From an uncultured Hyphomicrobiales bacterium (GTDB lineage Bacteria > Pseudomonadota > Alphaproteobacteria > Rhizobiales > Ancalomicrobiaceae): a stretch of DNA of 34,829 nt. Below, in pieces: positions 5,954 to 34,818 of this stretch. The translations under genes and the position numbers were made by a program. Position 1 is the first letter of the stretch. The number at the start of each line of letters is the position of its first letter. A model generated the notes under the pieces. It did not search any database. It had not been told where the DNA came from and saw only the letters and a list, made by a program, of their open reading frames with translations. The stretch spans positions 1 through 34,829 of the forward strand of contig CAIYYN010000006.1 in assembly GCA_903930435.1 (NCBI GenBank). Direction: 5' to 3'.

Positions 5954-7636
<1,683 letters not shown>

Positions 7637-7683
7637 TCAATCACGAGGCGGTCTTGAATTGCGCAAGCTGAAATCGAAAAGGG

Positions 7684-7709
7684 GATGGTGCCGACACTCC
7701 GGCACCATC
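7684..7709 (-). terminator. stem-loop (10-bp stem GATGGTGCCG/CGGCACCATC, 6-nt loop) 1 nt after the coxB stop on the transcribed strand, followed by CCCCUUUUCGAUUU; likely partial terminator or attenuator within the cox operon
   Basis: Perfect inverted repeat read from the sequence. U-rich tract downstream on the minus strand. Confidence 0.4.
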
Positions 7710-7710
7710 A

Positions 7711-8688
7711 TCACTTGGAGGCAACGGCCAATTTCTTGGTGTCGGCGTCAATGGCTTGAGCCAATACCTTGTAGGCCTTGTCGACATCCGTCTTTGCGGC
7801 TTCAGACCATGCCTTGAACTGTTCCTCGGTCACGACCTGCACCGCAATCGGCATGAACGCGTGGCCCTGTCCGCAGAGTTCAGAGCATTCGCCGTAGTAC
7901 ATCCCTGTCCGCTCGGCCTTGAACCAGGTTTCATTCAGTCGACCGGGCATCGCGTCGACCTTCACGCCGAAGGACGGCACCGCGAACGAGTGGATGACCG
8001 AAATCGGCTCGGCTGTGACCAGAACCTTGATGGTCTTGCCGACGGGAACGACAAAATTATTGTCGACTGCCAAGAGGCGCGGCTGGGTGTTCGGGTCAGT
8101 ACGGCTGTCAGAATCTGCCGTCGTCAACGAAATGCTGCCAACGGAAACCGGCTGCTTCTTGGAATCCAGCACGTCCGAATATTCGTACGTCCATGACCAG
8201 CCTGCCATTCCGATCGCCTTGACCGTCATGTCCGCCGGGGGAACTTCGAGTTCCTTGTAGAGCAGTCGGAGGGACGGCACGGCAATGACAACGAGGATGA
8301 GTACCGGCACGATGGTCCAGATCACCTCGATCATCGTGTTGTGAGCGACCTTGGATGGAACCGGGTTTGCCTTCGCATTGAAGCGCACCATGACGTAGAT
8401 CAGCAGGCCCAGCACAAACAATGTGATGAAGCCGACAATCCACATCGTCAGATTGGCGAAAGAATGAATGTCTTCCATCACTTCAGTGGCAGAGGGCTGC
8501 AGATACAGTTGCCATTTGACGATTTGCGGCGTCTCGATCATCTCGGCGAGCGCCGGTGTCGCTGCCAGCATTGCGGCCAAGGTCACCGCAATTGCTGCAA
8601 TTCCCACACCGGTCAGTCCGGTCAGGGACGAAAAGCCTGCAGTTCTAGTTGAGCCCGATTGGGCCTTGCGTTTCAGGATCACGTCCAT
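7711..8688 (-). CDS. coxB: cytochrome c oxidase subunit II
   Basis: Signal peptide ending in ALA, two TM helices and the CuA centre (CSELCGQGHAFM). Start set at ATG 8688, which is preceded by AAGGAG. The track ORF begins at an upstream TTG. Confidence 0.9.
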   Translation of the reverse strand: MDVILKRKAQSGSTRTAGFSSLTGLTGVGIAAIAVTLAAMLAATPALAEMIETPQIVKWQLYLQPSATEVMEDIHSFANLTMWIVGFITLFVLGLLIYVMVRFNAKANPVPSKVAHNTMIEVIWTIVPVLILVVIAVPSLRLLYKELEVPPADMTVKAIGMAGWSWTYEYSDVLDSKKQPVSVGSISLTTADSDSRTDPNTQPRLLAVDNNFVVPVGKTIKVLVTAEPISVIHSFAVPSFGVKVDAMPGRLNETWFKAERTGMYYGECSELCGQGHAFMPIAVQVVTEEQFKAWSEAAKTDVDKAYKVLAQAIDADTKKLAVASK

Positions 8689-11639: not shown

Positions 11640-13085
11640 ATGTCCGTTTCCTCCACCAGCGCGTCACAGGATCTGTTTCAGGCAACCGATCTTGATCCAG
11701 ACCGGGCCAAGGCCATCGTTGCCGATGCTCTTCAGGGCAGTGATGACGGCGAGCTGTTTCTGGAATACCGGCAATCGGAGTCGCTCGTTTTTGACAATGG
11801 TCGGCTGAAGGCTGCCACCTTTGACACGACGCAGGGGTTTGGACTGCGCGCGGTTTCAGGCGAACTCGCGGGCTATGCGCATTCAGGTGAACTATCCGAG
11901 GCAGCCCTGAAGCGGGCAGCCGACGCGGTGCGGGCGGTTGGATCTGGATATAGCGGCACTTATGCCGCTGCACCTGGGCGCACGAATACCCGGCTTTATC
12001 CGGACCTTAATCCATTGGGAGCACCTGGTTTCGAGGACAAGGTCAAACTTCTTTCTGAAATTGATGCCTTCGCCCGGGCCCGTGACCCGCGGGTTCGTCA
12101 GGTGAGCGTCTCCCTGGCGGCCTCCTGGCAGGTGGTCGAGATCCTGCGCGCCGATGGCCATCGGGTTCGCGATGTTCGGCCGCTCGTCCGGTTCGGCGTT
12201 TCTGTCGTTGCGGGCAAGGGGGATCGACAGGAAACCGGCTCGGTCGGTTCTGGCGGGCGTGAGGGCTTCGAGCGCTTTGTGTCGATTGATCACTGGCAGT
12301 CTGCGGTTGATGAAGCGTTGCGGCAGGCCCTCGTCAATCTCGACGCAGTACCGGCGCCCGCTGGTAGTTATGACGTTGTGCTTGGGCCGGGCTGGCCGGG
12401 TATTCTCCTGCACGAGGCGATCGGCCACGGACTCGAGGGCGATTTCAACCGCAAGAAGACATCCGCCTTTGCCGGCCTGATGGGCCAGCGCGTGGCCTCG
12501 CCGGGCGTCACGGTGGTGGATGATGGCACACTGGCTTCGCGGCGGGGGTCATTGTCGATTGATGACGAGGGCACTCCGACGTCAACCACGACCCTGATCG
12601 AGGATGGTATCCTGGTTGGCTACATGCAGGATCGGCAGAATGCGCGCCTGATGGGCATGACGCCGACGGGTAACGGTCGCCGACAGTCGTATGCCCATTC
12701 GCCGATGCCGCGCATGACAAACACCTATATGCTGGCTGGCGGTTATGATCCCGCCGAAATCCTCGCTTCGGTCAAGGATGGCATCTACGCGATCAATTTT
12801 GGCGGCGGGCAGGTGGATATTACTTCCGGCAAGTTCGTATTCGAATGCACCGAGGCCTATCGGGTCCAGGATGGCAAATTGGGTGCTCCGGTCAAGGGAG
12901 CCATGCTGATCGGCAATGGACCCGAGGCGCTGACGCGGGTTCGGATGATCGGCAATGACCTGGCGCTTGATCCGGGGATTGGAACTTGCGGCAAGCAGGG
13001 ACAGGGCGTGCCGGTTGGCGTCGGACAGCCAACCTTGCGGATTGATGGCGTCACGATTGGTGGCACGGATATCGCCGCGCGATAG
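11640..13085 (+). CDS. tldD: metalloprotease TldD
   Basis: 481 aa with the TldD HEAIGHGLEGDF metal-binding motif and the glycine-rich C-terminus. Confidence 0.9.
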   Translation: MSVSSTSASQDLFQATDLDPDRAKAIVADALQGSDDGELFLEYRQSESLVFDNGRLKAATFDTTQGFGLRAVSGELAGYAHSGELSEAALKRAADAVRAVGSGYSGTYAAAPGRTNTRLYPDLNPLGAPGFEDKVKLLSEIDAFARARDPRVRQVSVSLAASWQVVEILRADGHRVRDVRPLVRFGVSVVAGKGDRQETGSVGSGGREGFERFVSIDHWQSAVDEALRQALVNLDAVPAPAGSYDVVLGPGWPGILLHEAIGHGLEGDFNRKKTSAFAGLMGQRVASPGVTVVDDGTLASRRGSLSIDDEGTPTSTTTLIEDGILVGYMQDRQNARLMGMTPTGNGRRQSYAHSPMPRMTNTYMLAGGYDPAEILASVKDGIYAINFGGGQVDITSGKFVFECTEAYRVQDGKLGAPVKGAMLIGNGPEALTRVRMIGNDLALDPGIGTCGKQGQGVPVGVGQPTLRIDGVTIGGTDIAAR

Positions 13086-18552: not shown

Positions 18553-19629
18553 TCAGTTACTGGTCTCGGGACCAACACGGGCGGCATCGTTGATGCGCCG
18601 GGGATGTGCGCCAAGAGCCATAAGTCGGTTTGACAAAAAGTCCATCAGGTCCTGCTCGGCGTCAAATCGTAACCTGATTGAAGCGACCTTGGCCCGCGCA
18701 GCAAGGGCAGCCAGATCCTGATCGGAAGCACTCGCCAGCCGCGCCATATCCTTGGCCGTCGTGATCAGCAGTCGTGTTGTACCCTCGACCTTGCGCAAGA
18801 GATCGCGAGCTTCGTCCGGGCGAAATCGGTGGTGATCCGGGAAGCTCACCAGTTCCTCGACAATCGCTCCCCGGGCAAGCAAGCCTTCGGCCAGCTTCTC
18901 GGGTCGCCCGATACCGGCAAACGCGACGACGCGCTGTCCGCGCACATCTACTGCGTCTGTCGTCGGCTCGACGAATGCATTAAAGGTCGGTCGGTTCAAA
19001 GCATGCGCCTGTCTTGCGATGTCATCGGCAGCTTTGCCCGGTGCACCATTCGAGATGATGATGAGGCCATCCATGGCATCCAACTGGGTCTGCAACGGCG
19101 CTCTCAGTGGTCCGGCAGGCAATACTTGGCCATTCCCGACGCCATAGACATCGTCGATCACGACGAATGAGAGATCCTTCGCCAACGTCGGGCTTTGGAA
19201 ACCGTCGTCCATGATGATGAGGTCGCAGCCGCAGGCTATTGCGAATTCAGCCCCTTTGCCCCTGTTTCGCGATACGATTACCGGCAAGCCACTTTGCGCA
19301 ATCATCAGCGCTTCGTCGCCCACGTCCCGTGCCGTGTCGTGTCGCGCGTCGACGAGCTTGGGGCCTTTGACGCGTCCACCGTAGCCACGCATCAGGACGA
19401 TTGGCGAATAATTGAAACCCGTTACCAGCTTTGTAATCGCAATGGCAGCAGGTGTTTTACCCGCGCCACCAGCCGTGAAATTGCCAATCGCAATGACCGG
19501 AATATTGGCCCGGCTGCGCGGCGGCCGCCGCATGCGTGCGCCCGAAATGGACCCATAGACCCAGCTGATCGGCAGCAGCAATTGGCTTGGCCAGCTCCTA
19601 TCCGTCCAGAACTTCGGTGCCGATCTCAT
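18553..19629 (-). CDS. lpxK: tetraacyldisaccharide 4'-kinase
   Basis: P-loop IPVIAIGNFTAGGAGKTP and overall LpxK similarity. Start overlaps the waaA stop (ATGA). Confidence 0.9.
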   Translation of the reverse strand: MRSAPKFWTDRSWPSQLLLPISWVYGSISGARMRRPPRSRANIPVIAIGNFTAGGAGKTPAAIAITKLVTGFNYSPIVLMRGYGGRVKGPKLVDARHDTARDVGDEALMIAQSGLPVIVSRNRGKGAEFAIACGCDLIIMDDGFQSPTLAKDLSFVVIDDVYGVGNGQVLPAGPLRAPLQTQLDAMDGLIIISNGAPGKAADDIARQAHALNRPTFNAFVEPTTDAVDVRGQRVVAFAGIGRPEKLAEGLLARGAIVEELVSFPDHHRFRPDEARDLLRKVEGTTRLLITTAKDMARLASASDQDLAALAARAKVASIRLRFDAEQDLMDFLSNRLMALGAHPRRINDAARVGPETSN

Positions 19630-20990
19630 CCCGCGACGCGCTCCACCACATCGCCGCTCTGGATTTCGGATCGGCTATCATCCAACGTGGTCTGGCCAAC
19701 CTTGGGCAGATAATCCGGGAGTAGTCTTGTTGCCAGCCAATGGCGGGTCTGTTCAAGCGCCCCACGACCGGACTCAACGATCTCGCGTCCGGCTCGCGCA
19801 CTGTCCCGTGCCAGCGTCGGCATCGACAACAACCGGAGGGCATGCTCGGCCAGTTCATTCGCATCCCGGACCAGTCGGGCACCGCCGCCCTCGTCAAGCG
19901 CTGCGAATATATCGCGCGCGTTATAGACGTGTGGGCCATGCAGGACCGCGATATCGAGTTGCGCGGCCTCGATCGGATTATGTCCACCAATCGGCACCAG
20001 CGATCCGCCGACGAAGGCCACATCTGCCAAGCGGTAGAACAGGCCGAGTTCGCCCAGGGTATCGGCCAGATAGATGTCTGTCTCAGGACCCGGAATTTCC
20101 CCCCGCGATCTGGCTGCAGGTTGACAGCCTGTCGCCTCAAGTTCGGCCATGATGTCGGTTCGCCGATCAGGATGTCTTGGAACGATGATCGTCAGCAAGT
20201 CCGGCAGCGATTTTGCTATCTTGAGCGCGGCTTCGGTAACGAGTGCTTCTTCGCCTGGATGGGTACTGGCAGCCAGCAGGATCGGGCGCGCGCCAATCAA
20301 TCGACGCAAAGCTTCAAGCTCCGTTTGATCGGCACCGAGGGGCTTGCAATCAAATTTGATATTGCCTGTCATGACGACATCACTCGCGCCAATCCGCTCG
20401 AAGCGGGCTGCGTCCTCTGCCGATTGCGCGAGCACCAGCGAAAATCGTCCGAACAAGGCACGTGCGATCGGTCGCACCTTCAGCCAACTCGCCATGGAAC
20501 GTTCAGAAATCCGTGCATTAACAAGAGCATGAGGAATGCGCCTTCGGTGCAATTCGCCCAAGGTGGTCGGCCAGATTTCAGATTCAACAAACAGCGCGGC
20601 GACCGGCTGCCAATGATCGAGAAACCGGTTGATGAAGAGCGGCAGATCCAGCGGAACATACTGGTGGATGGCACCCCTCGGCAATCGTCTGGCGGCGAGC
20701 GTTGCCGAGGTGACGGTTCCCGTTGTCAGAACGACCGACAGGCCCGATCCCGCCAGCCAGTCGATCAACGGGAGAACAGACATGGTCTCGCCGACGCTGG
20801 CAGCGTGAACCCAGACAAGCGGGCCGTCCGGGCGCTCGCACGAGGACCAACCTTTGCGCTCTCCGCGCCGAAGTGGGTCTTCCTTGCCGCGCCGGGTGCG
20901 ACGTTCAAGCAACAGGTCCACAAACGGTAGCAGAAGCATCCCAGCACCGCGATAGGCCGCGAATGCCGTTCTGGCCAGGAGGTCAGTCAT
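19626..20990 (-). CDS. waaA: 3-deoxy-D-manno-octulosonic acid (Kdo) transferase
   Basis: 454 aa with an N-terminal TM helix and KdtA glycosyltransferase N- and C-terminal domains. The WVHAASVGE motif is present. Confidence 0.9.
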   Translation of the reverse strand: MTDLLARTAFAAYRGAGMLLLPFVDLLLERRTRRGKEDPLRRGERKGWSSCERPDGPLVWVHAASVGETMSVLPLIDWLAGSGLSVVLTTGTVTSATLAARRLPRGAIHQYVPLDLPLFINRFLDHWQPVAALFVESEIWPTTLGELHRRRIPHALVNARISERSMASWLKVRPIARALFGRFSLVLAQSAEDAARFERIGASDVVMTGNIKFDCKPLGADQTELEALRRLIGARPILLAASTHPGEEALVTEAALKIAKSLPDLLTIIVPRHPDRRTDIMAELEATGCQPAARSRGEIPGPETDIYLADTLGELGLFYRLADVAFVGGSLVPIGGHNPIEAAQLDIAVLHGPHVYNARDIFAALDEGGGARLVRDANELAEHALRLLSMPTLARDSARAGREIVESGRGALEQTRHWLATRLLPDYLPKVGQTTLDDSRSEIQSGDVVERVAG

Positions 20991-21092
20991 TCAATGCCGT
21001 TTCTTTTCTATATCCTGTCCGCACGGCACACCGAGGGCCAACGATCCCGGGATGATCGTGTATCGCTATTTCAGTTGATTTTCGTTGCAAGG

Positions 21093-21690
21093 TCAAACGG
21101 CATCCGCATCCAGAGTTCCGTTGACCCCAGCCTGCGTGCCCAAGCCGTTCATGGCTGACGCAAATTGGGTCTCATGCAGTCGGGCGAAGTTCCCGCCTAT
21201 CGCAATCAGCTCATCGTGGGCCCCGACTTCGACGAGTTCACCCTGGTCCACGACACAGACGAGATCCGCGCGTTGCACGGTGGACAGCCGATGTGCGACC
21301 ATGATCACCGTACGCCTTTCCAGCAATGCATCACGCGCCGCAAATGCGAACGTGTTTCGCCCGCGAAGATCCGCTTCATCGCCCCGAACGTCATCATGCA
21401 CTCATCGACAAACAAAGAATCAGCTATTTCCCGACGAAAGCCTGCTGAACGTTCATCGGGCTTTGCATCGGACGGCAAGAAGCTGATCACATGCTCGGTC
21501 GCAAGATCCTTGTCGTGAACACTTCCGTGGCGGTCGGTGCTTTCCAGCAAGGTGATCGAGTCCGAGATTCTCATTGGTCGATCGAAGCCTGACATAGTGC
21601 ACAATCGAGACAAACGGCATGATGCTCCGTTCGACGGTTCCGACAAACTTCATTTCGCGATCTTTTACAGTGGTTTGTCGTCGATAGGAA
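21093..21690 (-). pseudogene. degraded remnant of an ABC transporter ATP-binding domain (msbA-like lipid A exporter C-terminus)
   Basis: The ABC ATPase C-terminus (...TVIMVAHRLSTVQRADLVCVVDQGELVEVGAHDELI...) is recognisable in the frame 21093..21401. Upstream parts are split over two further frames (21305..21646, 21453..21653) with stops, including a degraded Walker A-like segment. No transmembrane domain is present. Sits where msbA usually lies, upstream of waaA-lpxK. Confidence 0.5.
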
Positions 21691-21698
21691 GTCGCAAC

Positions 21699-21947
21699 TC
21701 AATCGTGATGTGCGGTTGCATCGGGATCAAGCAGGCGGTGCAGATGAACGACGAAATACCGCATATGCGCGTTATCGACGGTTGATTGCGCCTTGGCTTT
21801 CCAGGCCGCATGTGCGGAGGCGTAATTCGGATAAAGCCCAACCATGTCTACCTTCGAGAGATCCTTGAACTCGGTGCCGTTGAGGTCGACGAGTTCGCCG
21901 CCGAAGACGAGATGCAGAAGCTGGGCATTTGGCGTGGAGGTCGGCAT
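21699..21947 (-). CDS. DUF4170 domain protein
   Basis: 82 aa with the QLLHLVFGGELVDLNGTEFKDL...GLYPNYASAHAAWKAKAQSTVDNAHMRYFVVHLHRLLDP DUF4170 signature. ATG start. Confidence 0.7.
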   Translation of the reverse strand: MPTSTPNAQLLHLVFGGELVDLNGTEFKDLSKVDMVGLYPNYASAHAAWKAKAQSTVDNAHMRYFVVHLHRLLDPDATAHHD

Positions 21948-21996
21948 GGGTATCTGGCTCCGTCAGCAAGCGTTGTCTGGAATGCAAGCGCGGGAG

Positions 21997-22863
21997 TCAG
22001 GTCCCGCGACTGCGCGTATGCTTGTCGAGAATCGCACCATAGAGAGACTTGAATGCTTGATAAACGCCTGGACCCGCTGCGACCAGTGCCGGATGTCGCG
22101 GAACCGCGCGATTGTAGGTGAGTGTTGCACCATCAATATCCGTCAGCCGACCGCCAGCCTCTTGCAGGATGAGATCAGCCGCCGCCAGATCCCAGTCATG
22201 CGACCGGGCGAAGGCAAAGGCGGCGTCGGCTGTGCCGTTGGCGACATGGGCAATGCGCAGTGCCAGCGAGGGCACAGGTGATTGCAACGCGATGCCGAGA
22301 CGTTCCGCTTCACTCTCGAGGACGCTGAATTTTCGCGGAGCGGTCAGTCGTGCGCCAGTGATCGTGTCACAGGCGAGGACCGCCATTTGCATCACGCCTC
22401 GCCAGGCACCACGGCCGGCGGCGGCAAGCATCATGTCGTTGACGGCGGGCTGATAGAGCGCGGCAGCGATGGGTCGGTCGCCTTCAACGATGGCGACCGA
22501 AACTGCCCACCGGGGATCGCCGCCGATAAATGCGCGCGTGCCGTCAATCGGATCGACGACGAAGAGCCTGTGACGCTCCAGCCGATCGGGCGTATCGACG
22601 GTTTCTTCCGATAGCCAGCCATAGTCAGGCCGGGCGGCTCGCAACCGGGACTTCAGCAATTGGTCGACGGCAATATCCGCCTCCGTGACCGGACTGTCGC
22701 CGGTTTTGGTCCAGGCTTTCGGCGCGTTGCCAAAGTAGCCGAGCGCAATCTGACCAGCAGCCAGAGTTGCCTCCGCCAGCAGAGCGACCTCAGGTCCGAG
22801 ATCGCGTCCACCGGTGACTGGCGCTCCAATGCCACTATCAGGTCGATCCTCAGCTGCCGGCAA
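21997..22863 (-). CDS. inositol monophosphatase family protein
   Basis: IMPase motifs WLSEET and VVDPIDGTRAF. Start overlaps the pmbA stop region; the true start could be slightly internal. Confidence 0.85.
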   Translation of the reverse strand: MPAAEDRPDSGIGAPVTGGRDLGPEVALLAEATLAAGQIALGYFGNAPKAWTKTGDSPVTEADIAVDQLLKSRLRAARPDYGWLSEETVDTPDRLERHRLFVVDPIDGTRAFIGGDPRWAVSVAIVEGDRPIAAALYQPAVNDMMLAAAGRGAWRGVMQMAVLACDTITGARLTAPRKFSVLESEAERLGIALQSPVPSLALRIAHVANGTADAAFAFARSHDWDLAAADLILQEAGGRLTDIDGATLTYNRAVPRHPALVAAGPGVYQAFKSLYGAILDKHTRSRGT

Positions 22864-24193
22864 TCGTCAATCCCTCAATCAGCACCGTTGGCGCATTGGT
22901 GCCGTAGCGATAAACGAGGTCGTCGGCGGGCACAATCCGTTGAAACATGTCCTTCAGATTGCCCGCTATCGTGATCTCGCTGACGGGATAGGTCAGTTCG
23001 CCATTCTCGATCCAGAAGCCTGAGCAGCCGCGACTGTAATCACCGGTCACGCCATTGACCCCCGATCCGATCATGTCGGTTATGTAGAGCCCGGAATTCA
23101 CGGATTTGATCATGTCCGCACGCGATATGGTTCCGGCATGCAGCGTCAGATTTGTCGACGACGGGTGCGGCGAGCCGACGCCGCGCGATGCGCGCGCATT
23201 GCTCTGAAGCCCCAGTTCCCGTGCTGTCGAGGAATCGAGGAACCAGGTGGTGAGCACACCGTCCTCGATGACATTCAGCACGTCCCCGGTCAGCCCTTCG
23301 CCGTCGAAGGGACGCGAGCCAAGCCCGCGACGTCGCGTCGGATCATCCGAGATCTGGATGCCTCTGGCGAAGACCTGTTGGCCGAGCTTATCCTTCAGAA
23401 ACGAGGTCTTACGGGCAATCGATGCGCCGTTGATCGCGCTGGCCAGATGCCCGACGAGACCCCCTGAGGCCCTCGGATCATAGATGACGGTTGCCGTACC
23501 GCTCGGAACCTTGCGCGGAGCAACCCGGCGTACGGCCCTTTCGCCAGCTTTGCGACCGATCTCGGCAGCTGCGTCCAGATCGGCTGCGTGGATCTTCGAA
23601 CTGGATTCCCAGTCCCGCTCCATGCCCGTGCCTTCGCCTGCGATTGCCGTTGCAGAAATCGAATGCCGCGAGCCGAGATAGGCACCGGAAAACCCGTGCG
23701 ACGTCACCAGAACCAGTCCGCCGACCGACCAAGACGCACCTGCGCCGCCGGAATTGGTCACACCGCTAACTGCGCGCGCCGCGTCTTCCGCTTCCATGGC
23801 CAGCGCAATCAGCCGTTCGCTGCTGACAGGTACGGGATCGAGAAGGTCGAGATCGGCAAAGGCTGTGGCCAGACGGTCGGCGGGTGCCAGACCCGCAAAC
23901 GGGTCTTCAGGCGCAATTTTCGCCATGGCGACGGCGCGTTCGGCGAGTTCGCCCGGATCGTTGAATGCATTGGCAGAGACGCTTGCATGTCGCTTTCCGA
24001 TGAAGACACGCAGACCGAAATCATCGCCCTCGGCACGTTGAGTATCCTCAAGTTTGCCGAGCCGGACCCCCACGGATAGCGACGCCCCGCGCACTGCCAC
24101 GGCGTCAGCTGCATCAGCCCCTGCCTTTAGCGCAGCTCGTACCAAGGCGTCCGCACGATCCCGGGAACTGGTCTGGTCGAGAATATCAGTCAT
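22850..24193 (-). CDS. pmbA: metalloprotease PmbA/TldE
   Basis: 447 aa of the TldE/PmbA family; partner of TldD. ATG start. Confidence 0.9.
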   Translation of the reverse strand: MTDILDQTSSRDRADALVRAALKAGADAADAVAVRGASLSVGVRLGKLEDTQRAEGDDFGLRVFIGKRHASVSANAFNDPGELAERAVAMAKIAPEDPFAGLAPADRLATAFADLDLLDPVPVSSERLIALAMEAEDAARAVSGVTNSGGAGASWSVGGLVLVTSHGFSGAYLGSRHSISATAIAGEGTGMERDWESSSKIHAADLDAAAEIGRKAGERAVRRVAPRKVPSGTATVIYDPRASGGLVGHLASAINGASIARKTSFLKDKLGQQVFARGIQISDDPTRRRGLGSRPFDGEGLTGDVLNVIEDGVLTTWFLDSSTARELGLQSNARASRGVGSPHPSSTNLTLHAGTISRADMIKSVNSGLYITDMIGSGVNGVTGDYSRGCSGFWIENGELTYPVSEITIAGNLKDMFQRIVPADDLVYRYGTNAPTVLIEGLTIAGS

Positions 24194-24462
24194 GCGACCC
24201 CTTCGGCATAGTCGACGCGGCCCGAGGCCGACAACGGAAACGCAAATCAGGTTCCTACCGTTGAACTATGGCACGATTCGGTCGTCTGCAAGATGCTTGG
24301 TCTGGTGAATGTAACGCTTTAGTCATTCTTTTGAAGGGATCCAGTAACTCTAAAAAAATCCAGATTTTCTTAACCAGATACTTTAAGTCGTTGGCGAAAA
24401 TGAACGTGTAACGTGAGGCCAAGTCAGGAAATGGATCAATAAAGATCAGCCTGGAGGCTTTC

Positions 24463-25065
24463 GTGGGACGTCAATCAAATCTTGGCAAGAAGTATATCGA
24501 GCAGGATACAGTTACACCAGATGTAACTGTGCGCATCGATCCTTACGCTCTGCCACAAAGCTATCGGTACAACACTGGTTTGAGTGGAGAGGCTGCTCAG
24601 GCTGCGGTCGTGCTGGATCGCGGTTTGGCGACGATTTGCCGTCGGCTACCCTCCGGGATTCCGATGGCCATGCGGATGCCGATGGACATTTTCGAAGGCG
24701 TGGCAGTGCGCATGGTGCCTGCCACTGACGCTGTCGACGATGTCACCATCGTGCTGGAATTGCTGCATCGTGATCCCATGCTGTCGCTGCCGTTAATGGT
24801 CACAACCTCGATGGATGACGTCGTTGCCGACTGGCGCGCATGGGGGCGTATTCTCTGCCTGCCGCTGCTGATGGTCGAGCCGGATGGCAGCTACAAGCCC
24901 GTTGAAGCGCGCATCGGCTGCGTGTCCGTCAGGTCAGTGCAGCCGCGTCGTCATCGCTCGGTGCTCGCCAAGCGTCGGCCACGGTTTCTCGCCCGTCGTC
25001 GTGTTGGCGATCCGCGTCGCAGCGTCAAGGTCGAAGATCTCCGGGAAATCACAAGCTGGGAATAA
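24463..25065 (+). CDS. conserved hypothetical protein (Arg-rich C-terminus; possibly DUF6101-like)
   Basis: 200-aa ORF with a GTG start preceded by a strong GGAGG SD. No recognisable catalytic motif. C-terminal RRHRSVLAKRRPRFLARRRVGDPRR. Confidence 0.45.
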   Translation: MGRQSNLGKKYIEQDTVTPDVTVRIDPYALPQSYRYNTGLSGEAAQAAVVLDRGLATICRRLPSGIPMAMRMPMDIFEGVAVRMVPATDAVDDVTIVLELLHRDPMLSLPLMVTTSMDDVVADWRAWGRILCLPLLMVEPDGSYKPVEARIGCVSVRSVQPRRHRSVLAKRRPRFLARRRVGDPRRSVKVEDLREITSWE

Positions 25066-32660: not shown

Positions 32661-32892
32661 CAGTCCGAAAAATCCGATTAATGTAAGCGGGCGCTCCGGT
32701 CTGGCGTACTTGCCATGTAAAAGACTATTTCGCTCAGAGCGCTATGAGCCTTTCTTAAACCGCCCTGTTTATGATCAAGCAACTGTAATGATGAATTTTC
32801 TCCAACTAATCCCAAATTAGAGAAATTCACACAAATTAACTTGTCAGTAGCAATGAGGGTTCGAGCCTGCCAACCGCTACGTCAGTAACCAT

Positions 32893-32922
32893 TGCAACGC
32901 TCACATAAACGTGCTGTATCAT
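32893..32922 (+). promoter_or_regulatory. candidate sigma70-like promoter (TTGCAA-N18-TATCAT) for the ATPase/RloB operon
   Basis: Hexamers read directly from the sequence ~65 nt upstream of ATG 32985, in an AT-rich leader. Confidence 0.25.
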
Positions 32923-32984
32923 TTTCTGGGCTATTTTTTCTAAAAAAATCGGGAAAAATAGCCGTTCAACGCGACGGGATTCTC

Positions 32985-34286
32985 ATGATTATCGACTTCA
33001 CTCTCAAGAACTTCCGATCATTTCGTGATGGGCACACGCTCAGCATGAACGTGGAAAAAAAGGGCACAACCCACTTCAACAATTTCTCGGAAGTGGCACA
33101 TGGTCGGCTCAGTGTTCTACGCACGGCTGGCATCTATGGTGCGAATGCCGCTGGGAAATCAAATGTTTTAATAGCGCTAAACGCGCTGCGGTGGATTATT
33201 GTTGAGTCTGGGGATCTGAAGGAAGGTGATAAAATTCCCCCATACGAGCCGTATAGGTTAAATGAACGTAATAAATCTGAACCGGTCGAGTTCGAGATCG
33301 AGTTCGTTGATTTGAGTGGTGCAAGATATTCTTATTTTGTCTCTTTCACGAATTCGAGAATTGTGGAGGAACGGCTATTTACATTTGGAAGCCGACTGCG
33401 CTCTAAGATATTTGAACGTGGCTCCCACGACACATGGGAAACTATCGAGTTTGGCGGAAATTATAAGGGTGGCATCAAGAAGTTATCGTTTTTTCCAAAT
33501 CAAAGCTATTTATCAAAAGCTGGAAATAATGCTGCTGCCCCAGATGCAATTCGAGAGATTTATCGCTACTTCAGAAGCTTTTCATTTGTCGGACACAATT
33601 CAGCTCCGCGCATACCGAGCTACTTTAACGATCATAGAAGGCATTCTCGAATTAATAAACTCCTTCCCCTTTTCGATACGGGCGTGGAAAAAGTATCTTT
33701 AGAAGAGAACAACAATCCACCGTTCATACCTGAATATTTTCCGGAAGAAGTAAAAAAGAAAATAATTGAATTTTCAAGCCAGAAGTTTGTGTTCTGGCAT
33801 AAGTCTGACGACGGTGATCTGGTTCAGTTCGAAGTAGATGACGAGTCGGATGGCACGCAACAAGTTTTTAATATACTACCTCTAATTGTCGAGTCGCTTC
33901 GGCGAGGGGGCGTGCTTATTATAGATGAGATTGAAAATAGTTTTCATCCTCATTTGGTCCAAACGATACTTCGTCTCTATAATGATCGTTTGGTTAACCG
34001 TCGCAACGCCCAACTAATCTTTACAACCCATGACACAAGCAGCCTTAGCGAAAACATCTTTCGTAGAGACCAGCTCTGGTTTGTCGAAAAGCGTAACGGC
34101 GCGTCATCCTTGTATTCTCTGGATGAGTTTGATAAGCGGAAGGTCACGCCCGACAGTCCGTTCAGCCTCTGGTATATGGATGGTCGTTTCGGTGCTGTTC
34201 CACAAATCAAGTATGCTGATATCGCAGCAGCGATAAACGAAGACATTTCTGACGAAAAAAGCGATCAAAGCGATGCCGAAAAATAG
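32985..34286 (+). CDS. AAA_21/ABC-type ATPase of an AbiL-like (AbiLi / OLD-family-like) two-gene defence module
   Basis: N-terminus MIIDFTLKNFRSF, Walker A GANAAGKSNVL, Walker B VLIIDEIENSFHPHL and H-loop LIFTTHDTSSL. The ~230-aa variable middle region is typical of AAA_15/AAA_21 defence ATPases. GC ~43% against ~62% genome background. ATG 32985 with a GGGA RBS. The track ORF starts at an upstream TTG. Confidence 0.8.
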   Translation: MIIDFTLKNFRSFRDGHTLSMNVEKKGTTHFNNFSEVAHGRLSVLRTAGIYGANAAGKSNVLIALNALRWIIVESGDLKEGDKIPPYEPYRLNERNKSEPVEFEIEFVDLSGARYSYFVSFTNSRIVEERLFTFGSRLRSKIFERGSHDTWETIEFGGNYKGGIKKLSFFPNQSYLSKAGNNAAAPDAIREIYRYFRSFSFVGHNSAPRIPSYFNDHRRHSRINKLLPLFDTGVEKVSLEENNNPPFIPEYFPEEVKKKIIEFSSQKFVFWHKSDDGDLVQFEVDDESDGTQQVFNILPLIVESLRRGGVLIIDEIENSFHPHLVQTILRLYNDRLVNRRNAQLIFTTHDTSSLSENIFRRDQLWFVEKRNGASSLYSLDEFDKRKVTPDSPFSLWYMDGRFGAVPQIKYADIAAAINEDISDEKSDQSDAEK

Positions 34287-34818
34287 GACAAGGCCTGAGA
34301 GGCAAATCAGAAATCTACTTCGAATATATTGTGAAGGGGAAAAATCGGAACCAGCTTATTTGTATGGCTATCTACAGTACATATCGTGTCCGGCTGGTCG
34401 AATTAAAATTGAACAATGCTTCAAGAATACACCAATTCAGTTAGTTGGCGCAGCTTGTGAAAAGAAGAAATCGAGAGATTCTTTGGACGGCGACATATTT
34501 TGGGTCGTTTACGATAGAGAGGCTGTAAGCGCTATCACTAATGCTACCCACGAAAGCGCGAGAGCAAAAGCTGAGGCTTTTGGAATTCAGATCGCCATAT
34601 CAAATATTTGCTTTGAATTGTGGCTGCTACTACATCTTGAAGATACGTGTGCGCCATATAATAGCTGTGACGAACTTTTAAAACAAAGCATGTTTAAAGA
34701 AAAATATAAAGAAGAGACCGGAGGATATTACGAAAAGAGCAATAGTGATACATTTCATAAATTGAAGCATAGGTTGCCCAATGCTCGGCTTAGAGCCAAA
34801 CGACTTATGAGGATATGA
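34273..34818 (+). CDS. RloB-family (Toprim-like, AbiLii-like) protein, partner of the upstream ATPase
   Basis: N-terminal LLRIYCEGEKSEPAYL (RloB CEGExTE motif), DGD (Toprim-like DxD) and ISNICFELWLLLHL (RloB SNPCFExWLLLHF motif). Start overlaps the ATPase stop by 14 nt. Low GC. Confidence 0.8.
   Translation: MPKNRTRPERQIRNLLRIYCEGEKSEPAYLYGYLQYISCPAGRIKIEQCFKNTPIQLVGAACEKKKSRDSLDGDIFWVVYDREAVSAITNATHESARAKAEAFGIQIAISNICFELWLLLHLEDTCAPYNSCDELLKQSMFKEKYKEETGGYYEKSNSDTFHKLKHRLPNARLRAKRLMRI

Follow-up and report, generated by a model that had tools for sequence, protein, structure and literature searches.

In E. coli, msbA and lpxK form an operon. MsbA is the lipid A-core flippase and is represented by the NCBIfam family TIGR02203 and by PDB entries 3b5x, 3b60 and 6bl6. 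The gene block PmbA-IMPase-DUF4170-...-waaA-lpxK-DUF2093 is widely conserved among the 81 related loci that we compared, and an initial annotation of the locus studied here had taken an intact msbA-type gene to be the normal upstream neighbor of waaA-lpxK. We found that msbA lies upstream of waaA at only 15 of the 81 loci, and at neither L001 (an Ancalomicrobiaceae MAG) nor L002 (Pinisolibacter), the nearest species-level genomes with WaaA identities of 62% and 55%, respectively. At most of the other loci a DUF374 gene directly precedes waaA (e.g. L002, L003, L005, L013 and L064). A scan of JGI metagenomes for nearer relatives gave a top match of 56% WaaA identity, and a search of the literature for msbA pseudogenes or msbA synteny in Alphaproteobacteria returned general context only.

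The segment that separates the DUF4170 gene from waaA in the bacterium described here is very probably a non-functional, internally deleted pseudogene of a half-transporter of the MsbA type (ABC subfamily B, type IV exporter). As such it is an ordinary dead gene and not a new element.

The locus and its two msbA-related fragments

The window, by which we mean the whole stretch of 34,829 nucleotides that was analysed, comes from the chromosome of an uncultured Hyphomicrobiales bacterium and is of housekeeping character, with genes for cytochrome oxidase, for TldD and for an RND efflux pair. Two PmbA/TldD-family metallopeptidase genes are found in it (11640-13085 and 22850-24193), the TldD-like one close to the RND pump on the plus strand and the PmbA-like one at the head of the DUF4170-waaA block. 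The divergent intergenic region between the PmbA gene and a DUF6101 gene (24200-24650) shows a sharp fall in GC to 0.46-0.48. At the end of the window (32892-34818, plus strand) a gene for an AAA_21 protein (AbiEii-like ATPase, 464 aa) adjoins one for an RloB-like protein (181 aa), a combination characteristic of modules of the accessory or defence type.

The stop codon of the DUF4170 gene (21699) and the start of waaA (20990) are separated by a gap of 708 bp, and the features within and around it are collected in Table 1. The GC content of 21093-21690 is modestly lower than that of its surroundings (0.555, versus 0.581 in the window as a whole and 0.607 in waaA), as had been noted at the outset. 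An Rfam search of 20800-21900 returned only a chance snoRNA match (E=0.1), and no other ABC-B exporter was found within the 34.8-kb window.

Table 1. Positions of the msbA remnant, its neighboring genes and associated features in the window
Feature	Position	Strand	Basis
PmbA	24193..22850	minus	
Inositol monophosphatase (IMPase)	22863..21997	minus	
DUF4170 gene, upstream neighbor of the remnant	21699..21947	minus	Pfam DUF4170, 2.5e-24
Former msbA 5' intergenic region, DUF4170 stop to msbA start	21596..21698	minus	blastn to L081
5' fragment of the msbA pseudogene, ~88 codons from ATG 21595	21331..21595	minus	BLASTP, multiple alignment
Deletion junction	21329..21341	minus	end of N-terminal homology overlaps start of C-terminal homology; frames differ
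3' fragment of the msbA pseudogene, last ~75 codons	21093..21341	minus	TIGR02203, tblastn, PDB matches
Conserved block over and past the msbA stop codon, candidate waaA promoter	21065..21101	minus	conservation
waaA (Kdo transferase), intact, purifying selection	19626..20990	minus	Pfam Glycos_transf_N, 6e-59
lpxK (tetraacyldisaccharide 4'-kinase), intact, overlaps waaA stop	18553..19629	minus	Pfam LpxK, 8e-82

The 3' fragment (..ALLERRTVIMVAHRLSTVQRADLVCVVDQGELVEVGAHDEL..) consists of the H-loop and C-terminal tail of a nucleotide-binding domain and terminates at a stop codon at 21095..21093. It lies in an ORF of 102 aa with a GTG start (21401..21093, minus) that ends ...RRTVIMVAHRLSTVQRADLVCVVDQGELVEVGAHDELIAIGGNFARLHETQF... 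and matches the NCBIfam MsbA model TIGR02203 at E=2.7e-18 over profile positions 511-571 of 572; other NCBIfam models of subfamily-B exporters fit this ORF less well. Against the C-termini of MsbA and ABCB1 in the PDB, the same ORF gives E-values down to 1e-24. With five intact MsbA proteins from related loci as tblastn queries, matches were obtained only at 21338..21129 (1e-14 to 6e-18); the rest of 21000-21700 gave no match even at a word size of 2 and E-values up to 10, and residues ~70-540 of the queries found no counterpart in the window. The initial annotation had recognized the extreme C-terminus of an ABC ATPase in a single frame, and the comparison with a Rhizobiales MsbA that it proposed bears this out, the ABC-related similarity being confined to the tblastn interval.

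What remains of the nucleotide-binding domain is incomplete. Of its parts, only the H-loop region (VAHRLSTV) and C-terminal tail are retained; Walker A, Q-loop, LSGGQ, Walker B and D-loop are missing, and no ORF scores with Pfam ABC_tran. No match to the six-helix transmembrane domain (ABC_membrane) was found in any frame with either Pfam or NCBIfam, in keeping with the earlier observation that a transmembrane domain is missing.

The sequence upstream had been described as pieces in two frames broken by stops, among them a decayed Walker A-like stretch, and our results depart from this description on both counts. We find a single uninterrupted frame of 96 aa (21595..21305) that begins MSGFDRPMRISDSITLLESTD, and no similarity to ABC_tran, Walker A or any other part of a nucleotide-binding domain in 21340-21700 in any frame by Pfam, NCBIfam or tblastn. 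The 5' fragment (MSGFDRPMRISDS...GAMKRIFAGETRSHLRRVM) instead corresponds to the cytoplasmic N-terminus of MsbA and ends just before TM1. By BLASTP it matches residues 1-65 (pre-TM1) of the MsbA encoded at the related locus L081 (E=5e-13, 38% identity), and in a multiple alignment it aligns with the pre-TM1 N-termini of MsbA from L081, L064 and L032. No protein similar to it was found in a collection of 5.8 billion proteins.

Relative to the L081 N-terminus, the 5' fragment carries 24 additional codons (RHGSVHDKDLATEHVISFLPSDAK) at 21452-21523 (minus). A 'DEAD'-like string (GDEADL) in the C-terminal frame resembles a Walker B motif. Its DNA reads AMKRIF in the N-terminal frame, as part of GAMKRIF, and, since this DNA is derived from the N-terminus, the resemblance is coincidental.

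A different origin for the two fragments, as chance ORFs or as pieces of an unrelated ABC gene carried there by a mobile element, would have the slightly lower GC in its favor and nothing more. Their E-values range from 1e-13 to 1e-24, both match one and the same L081 gene with the order and orientation expected of its two ends, and no repeats (beyond 14-nt chance repeats) or insertion-sequence traces flank the scar. We consider such an origin vanishingly improbable.

The deletion and its replication in independent contigs

A protein-search match to the 3' fragment, P0003 (76% identity), led to L081, an 18-kb contig (ENA ERZ25070695). The window and L081 share the order PmbA-IMPase-DUF4170-X-waaA-lpxK-DUF2093-AcrB, with neighboring proteins 65-89% identical, and in L081 the slot X is occupied by a 1.9-kb msbA that covers residues 19-611 of an intact homolog. 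The synteny comparison proposed with the initial annotation thus locates a full-length gene in the very position of the remnant. When P0003 served as the query of a protein search, the matches were all short, partial ABC sequences (two with 85-88% identity and the others at 72% or below), with no full-length close ortholog among them.

By blastn, window positions 24195..21658 correspond to L081 3854..6388 and window positions 21326..19860 to L081 8292..9763, and from the positions of these blocks it follows that ~1.5 kb of L081 has no counterpart in the window. Two further short matches occur at the msbA start, and in this region window 21600..21554 corresponds to L081 6598..6644 at 79% identity. 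Because homology on the N-terminal side ends at ~21329 (codon 89) and that on the C-terminal side begins at 21338-21341, we place the junction at 21329-21341, with a precision of about ±10 bp given that L081 is only ~70-75% identical. Relative to L081, about 1.48 kb is missing (1,481 bp, ~494 codons; roughly L081 6798-8278), a segment that encodes TM1-TM6, Walker A (GPSGGGKST in L081), the Q-loop, the LSGGQ signature, Walker B and the D-loop. About 25% of the msbA gene is left. Its two ends (~88 and ~75 codons) are in different frames, the 5' frame continuing out of register past the junction to a stop at 21305, so that there is no continuous frame of about 580-640 codons.

L081 is the sole full-length syntenic comparator, and its msbA (6624-8513) is itself broken into 3-4 frames. 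The AcrB-type RND pump gene of L081 (11401-14801) is likewise split, and coverage by homologs is continuous over both genes. For these reasons the breaks in L081 seem attributable to indel errors in a long-read assembly of low coverage and not to real pseudogenization.

That such errors occur in comparable data lends some initial appeal to the idea that the shortened copy in the window is itself an assembly or sequencing artefact, the gene being intact in the organism and cut short by misassembly or indel errors. Two Logan contigs from other sequencing runs (SRR24390619 and SRR24390601), L082 (3124 bp) and L083 (949 bp), are ~98% identical to the window and argue strongly otherwise. Both have the same 708-bp interval between the DUF4170 gene and waaA with zero indels, and L082 aligns to the window over its 3124 bp with no gap and 71 mismatches (2.3% substitutions). 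Moreover, the loss of ~494 codons exceeds anything that a shifted frame would produce. An artefact is therefore extremely unlikely, and the frameshift errors suggested earlier as an alternative can be set aside. Since L082 and L083 carry the identical scar, the deletion is real and older than the split between these strains.

Comparison of the window with L082 also provides a view of selection across the locus, with the proviso that the substitution counts in the fragments are small (6 and 15 changes). For waaA, pS is 0.065 and pN is 0.0105 (pN/pS 0.16), and the DUF4170 gene is identical in the two sequences. In the C-terminal fragment we find five nonsynonymous changes and one synonymous change (pN/pS 1.7), and in the N-terminal fragment pN/pS is about 0.87. 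The scar as a whole diverges by 4.1%, which is near the waaA synonymous rate (pS 6.5%). Small as they are, the counts all point to a scar that drifts neutrally, under selection that appears relaxed relative to the neighboring genes.

These figures bear on whether either fragment could have been retained as a selected small protein, for example a regulatory peptide or a partner of another ABC domain. In the window each fragment still lies in an open frame of about 100 codons, and gene callers predict a 69-aa version of the C-terminal fragment in both L082 and L083. However, the pN/pS of each fragment is close to or above 1, L082 has a TAA at codon 66 that interrupts the N-terminal ORF of 96 aa, and the GTG with which the 102-aa ORF begins is not conserved in L082. 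The C-terminal fragment (69-102 aa) also lacks all catalytic motifs save the H-loop, and the N-terminal fragment has no stand-alone homolog. A functional small protein is very unlikely, and the 69-102-aa 'ABC ATP-binding' ORF predicted by gene callers (P0001) is best annotated as a fragment of a pseudogene.

We thus return to an internally deleted pseudogene, for which the following history can be proposed. An msbA-type gene would once have separated the DUF4170 gene from waaA-lpxK, an arrangement that L081 retains. One internal deletion of about 1.48 kb would then have removed codons ~66 to ~560 and joined the initial ~88 codons out of frame to the final ~75, leaving fragments predicted to be unable to bind or hydrolyse ATP or to form a membrane pore. 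Thereafter the scar would have drifted neutrally while the downstream genes, waaA and lpxK, stayed intact and constrained. The original suggestion of a deletion or decay event stands in part: a dead msbA-type remnant produced by deletion agrees with the full gene in the L081 slot, whereas a progressive decay of the ATPase does not describe what we find.

A conserved block at the msbA stop codon

One element of the scar stands out by its conservation. The window, L082, L081 and L084 all share a conserved block of the form GTTTGACC-N18-GAAATA or GATATG (GAWATR), although the remainder of the spacer between msbA and waaA cannot be aligned among them. Its position and conservation suggest that it may be a waaA promoter. 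As the candidate block overlaps the old msbA stop codon, its presence could account for the retention of the 3' end of msbA. A scan with a generic sigma-70 consensus called no promoter sites and did not call this block, and a consensus scan for terminator-like sites between the remnant and waaA found none.

The block raises the possibility that the scar has been kept mainly as regulatory DNA, with the old msbA promoter and 5' end, the block at the stop codon, or both, driving waaA-lpxK. If the ends of msbA served this purpose, only its dispensable middle could be lost. Conservation of the block amid an otherwise unalignable spacer, the uninterrupted path (free of terminator-like sites) from the remnant to waaA and the fact that the msbA start region can still be aligned to L081 are all consistent with such a role. 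On the other side, the generic promoter scan is empty and the -10 element of the block is weak. In addition, the corresponding spacer in L001 is 340 bp long and has no trace of msbA, an indication that a related lineage can express waaA without any msbA sequence. We regard a mainly regulatory scar as possible, if doubtful. Such a role would in any case complement the pseudogene explanation and not replace it.

msbA at related loci and in known systems

The identity of the ancestral gene can be judged from its intact syntenic homologs, for which the best family is MsbA (TIGR02203, equivalog cut-off 602 bits). L039 scores 605 bits against this model, and the Hyphomicrobiales homologs L064, L032 and L050 score 515-525 bits. 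With MsbA as the best family and the Hyphomicrobiales homologs below the equivalog cut-off, 'msbA-type' is therefore a fair label, and on sequence grounds the ancestral gene is better called MsbA-like than a proven ortholog of the lipid A flippase.

The DUF374 gene that precedes waaA in many related genomes is absent from the locus in the window (site 20991-21092), L081, L082, L084 and L001, and tblastn for DUF374 found no match anywhere in the window. The interval from the DUF4170 gene to waaA contains a DUF374 gene in L002, and searches of this interval in L001 and L002, the closest named relatives, for traces of msbA returned only noise. Loss of msbA from the DUF4170-waaA-lpxK block appears to be common and to have been repeated within the Hyphomicrobiales.

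Given that waaA and lpxK are intact and constrained, lipid A-core is presumably still made. Its flipping would fall to another MsbA-like paralog, probably encoded outside the window, and Hyphomicrobiales that have no msbA at this locus presumably make the same use of a paralog elsewhere. The initial annotation had likewise presumed that a functional msbA lies elsewhere and that the locus belongs to an essential pathway. Ca. Liberibacter asiaticus, with a reduced Rhizobiaceae genome, has two MsbA-like genes (PMC3688454). There is only a slim chance that the lineage represented by the window, L082 and L083 has no MsbA ortholog at all or, in a milder version, that the gene ends were spared as promoters of waaA-lpxK. 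If it had no ortholog, the lineage would have lost its sole flippase linked to the LPS locus while keeping waaA and lpxK under selection, and lipid A-core would be exported by a non-orthologous transporter. The locus provides a clean, datable case of msbA loss from the DUF4170-waaA-lpxK block with little import beyond annotation, and only the absence of any other MsbA-like exporter from a complete genome of the lineage would make it interesting.

Set against known systems, the remnant can be compared at three levels. Over their whole length its C-terminal 60 residues align with the last 60 positions of the MsbA model, and they also align with solved MsbA structures, but unlike MsbA it has no transmembrane domain, Walker A, signature or Walker B, and its site adjoins lpxK and waaA in an arrangement that resembles the E. 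coli msbA-lpxK operon. With the syntenic msbA of L081 it shares its position, but L081 has the full 1.9 kb, of which about 1.48 kb is missing from the window. With the Hyphomicrobiales loci that have no msbA (e.g. Pinisolibacter L002, Kaistia, Xanthobacter and Rhizobiaceae) it shares the gene block and, likewise, the lack of a functional msbA; those loci have no trace of msbA and usually contain a DUF374 gene, whereas the window retains an msbA scar and has no DUF374 gene.
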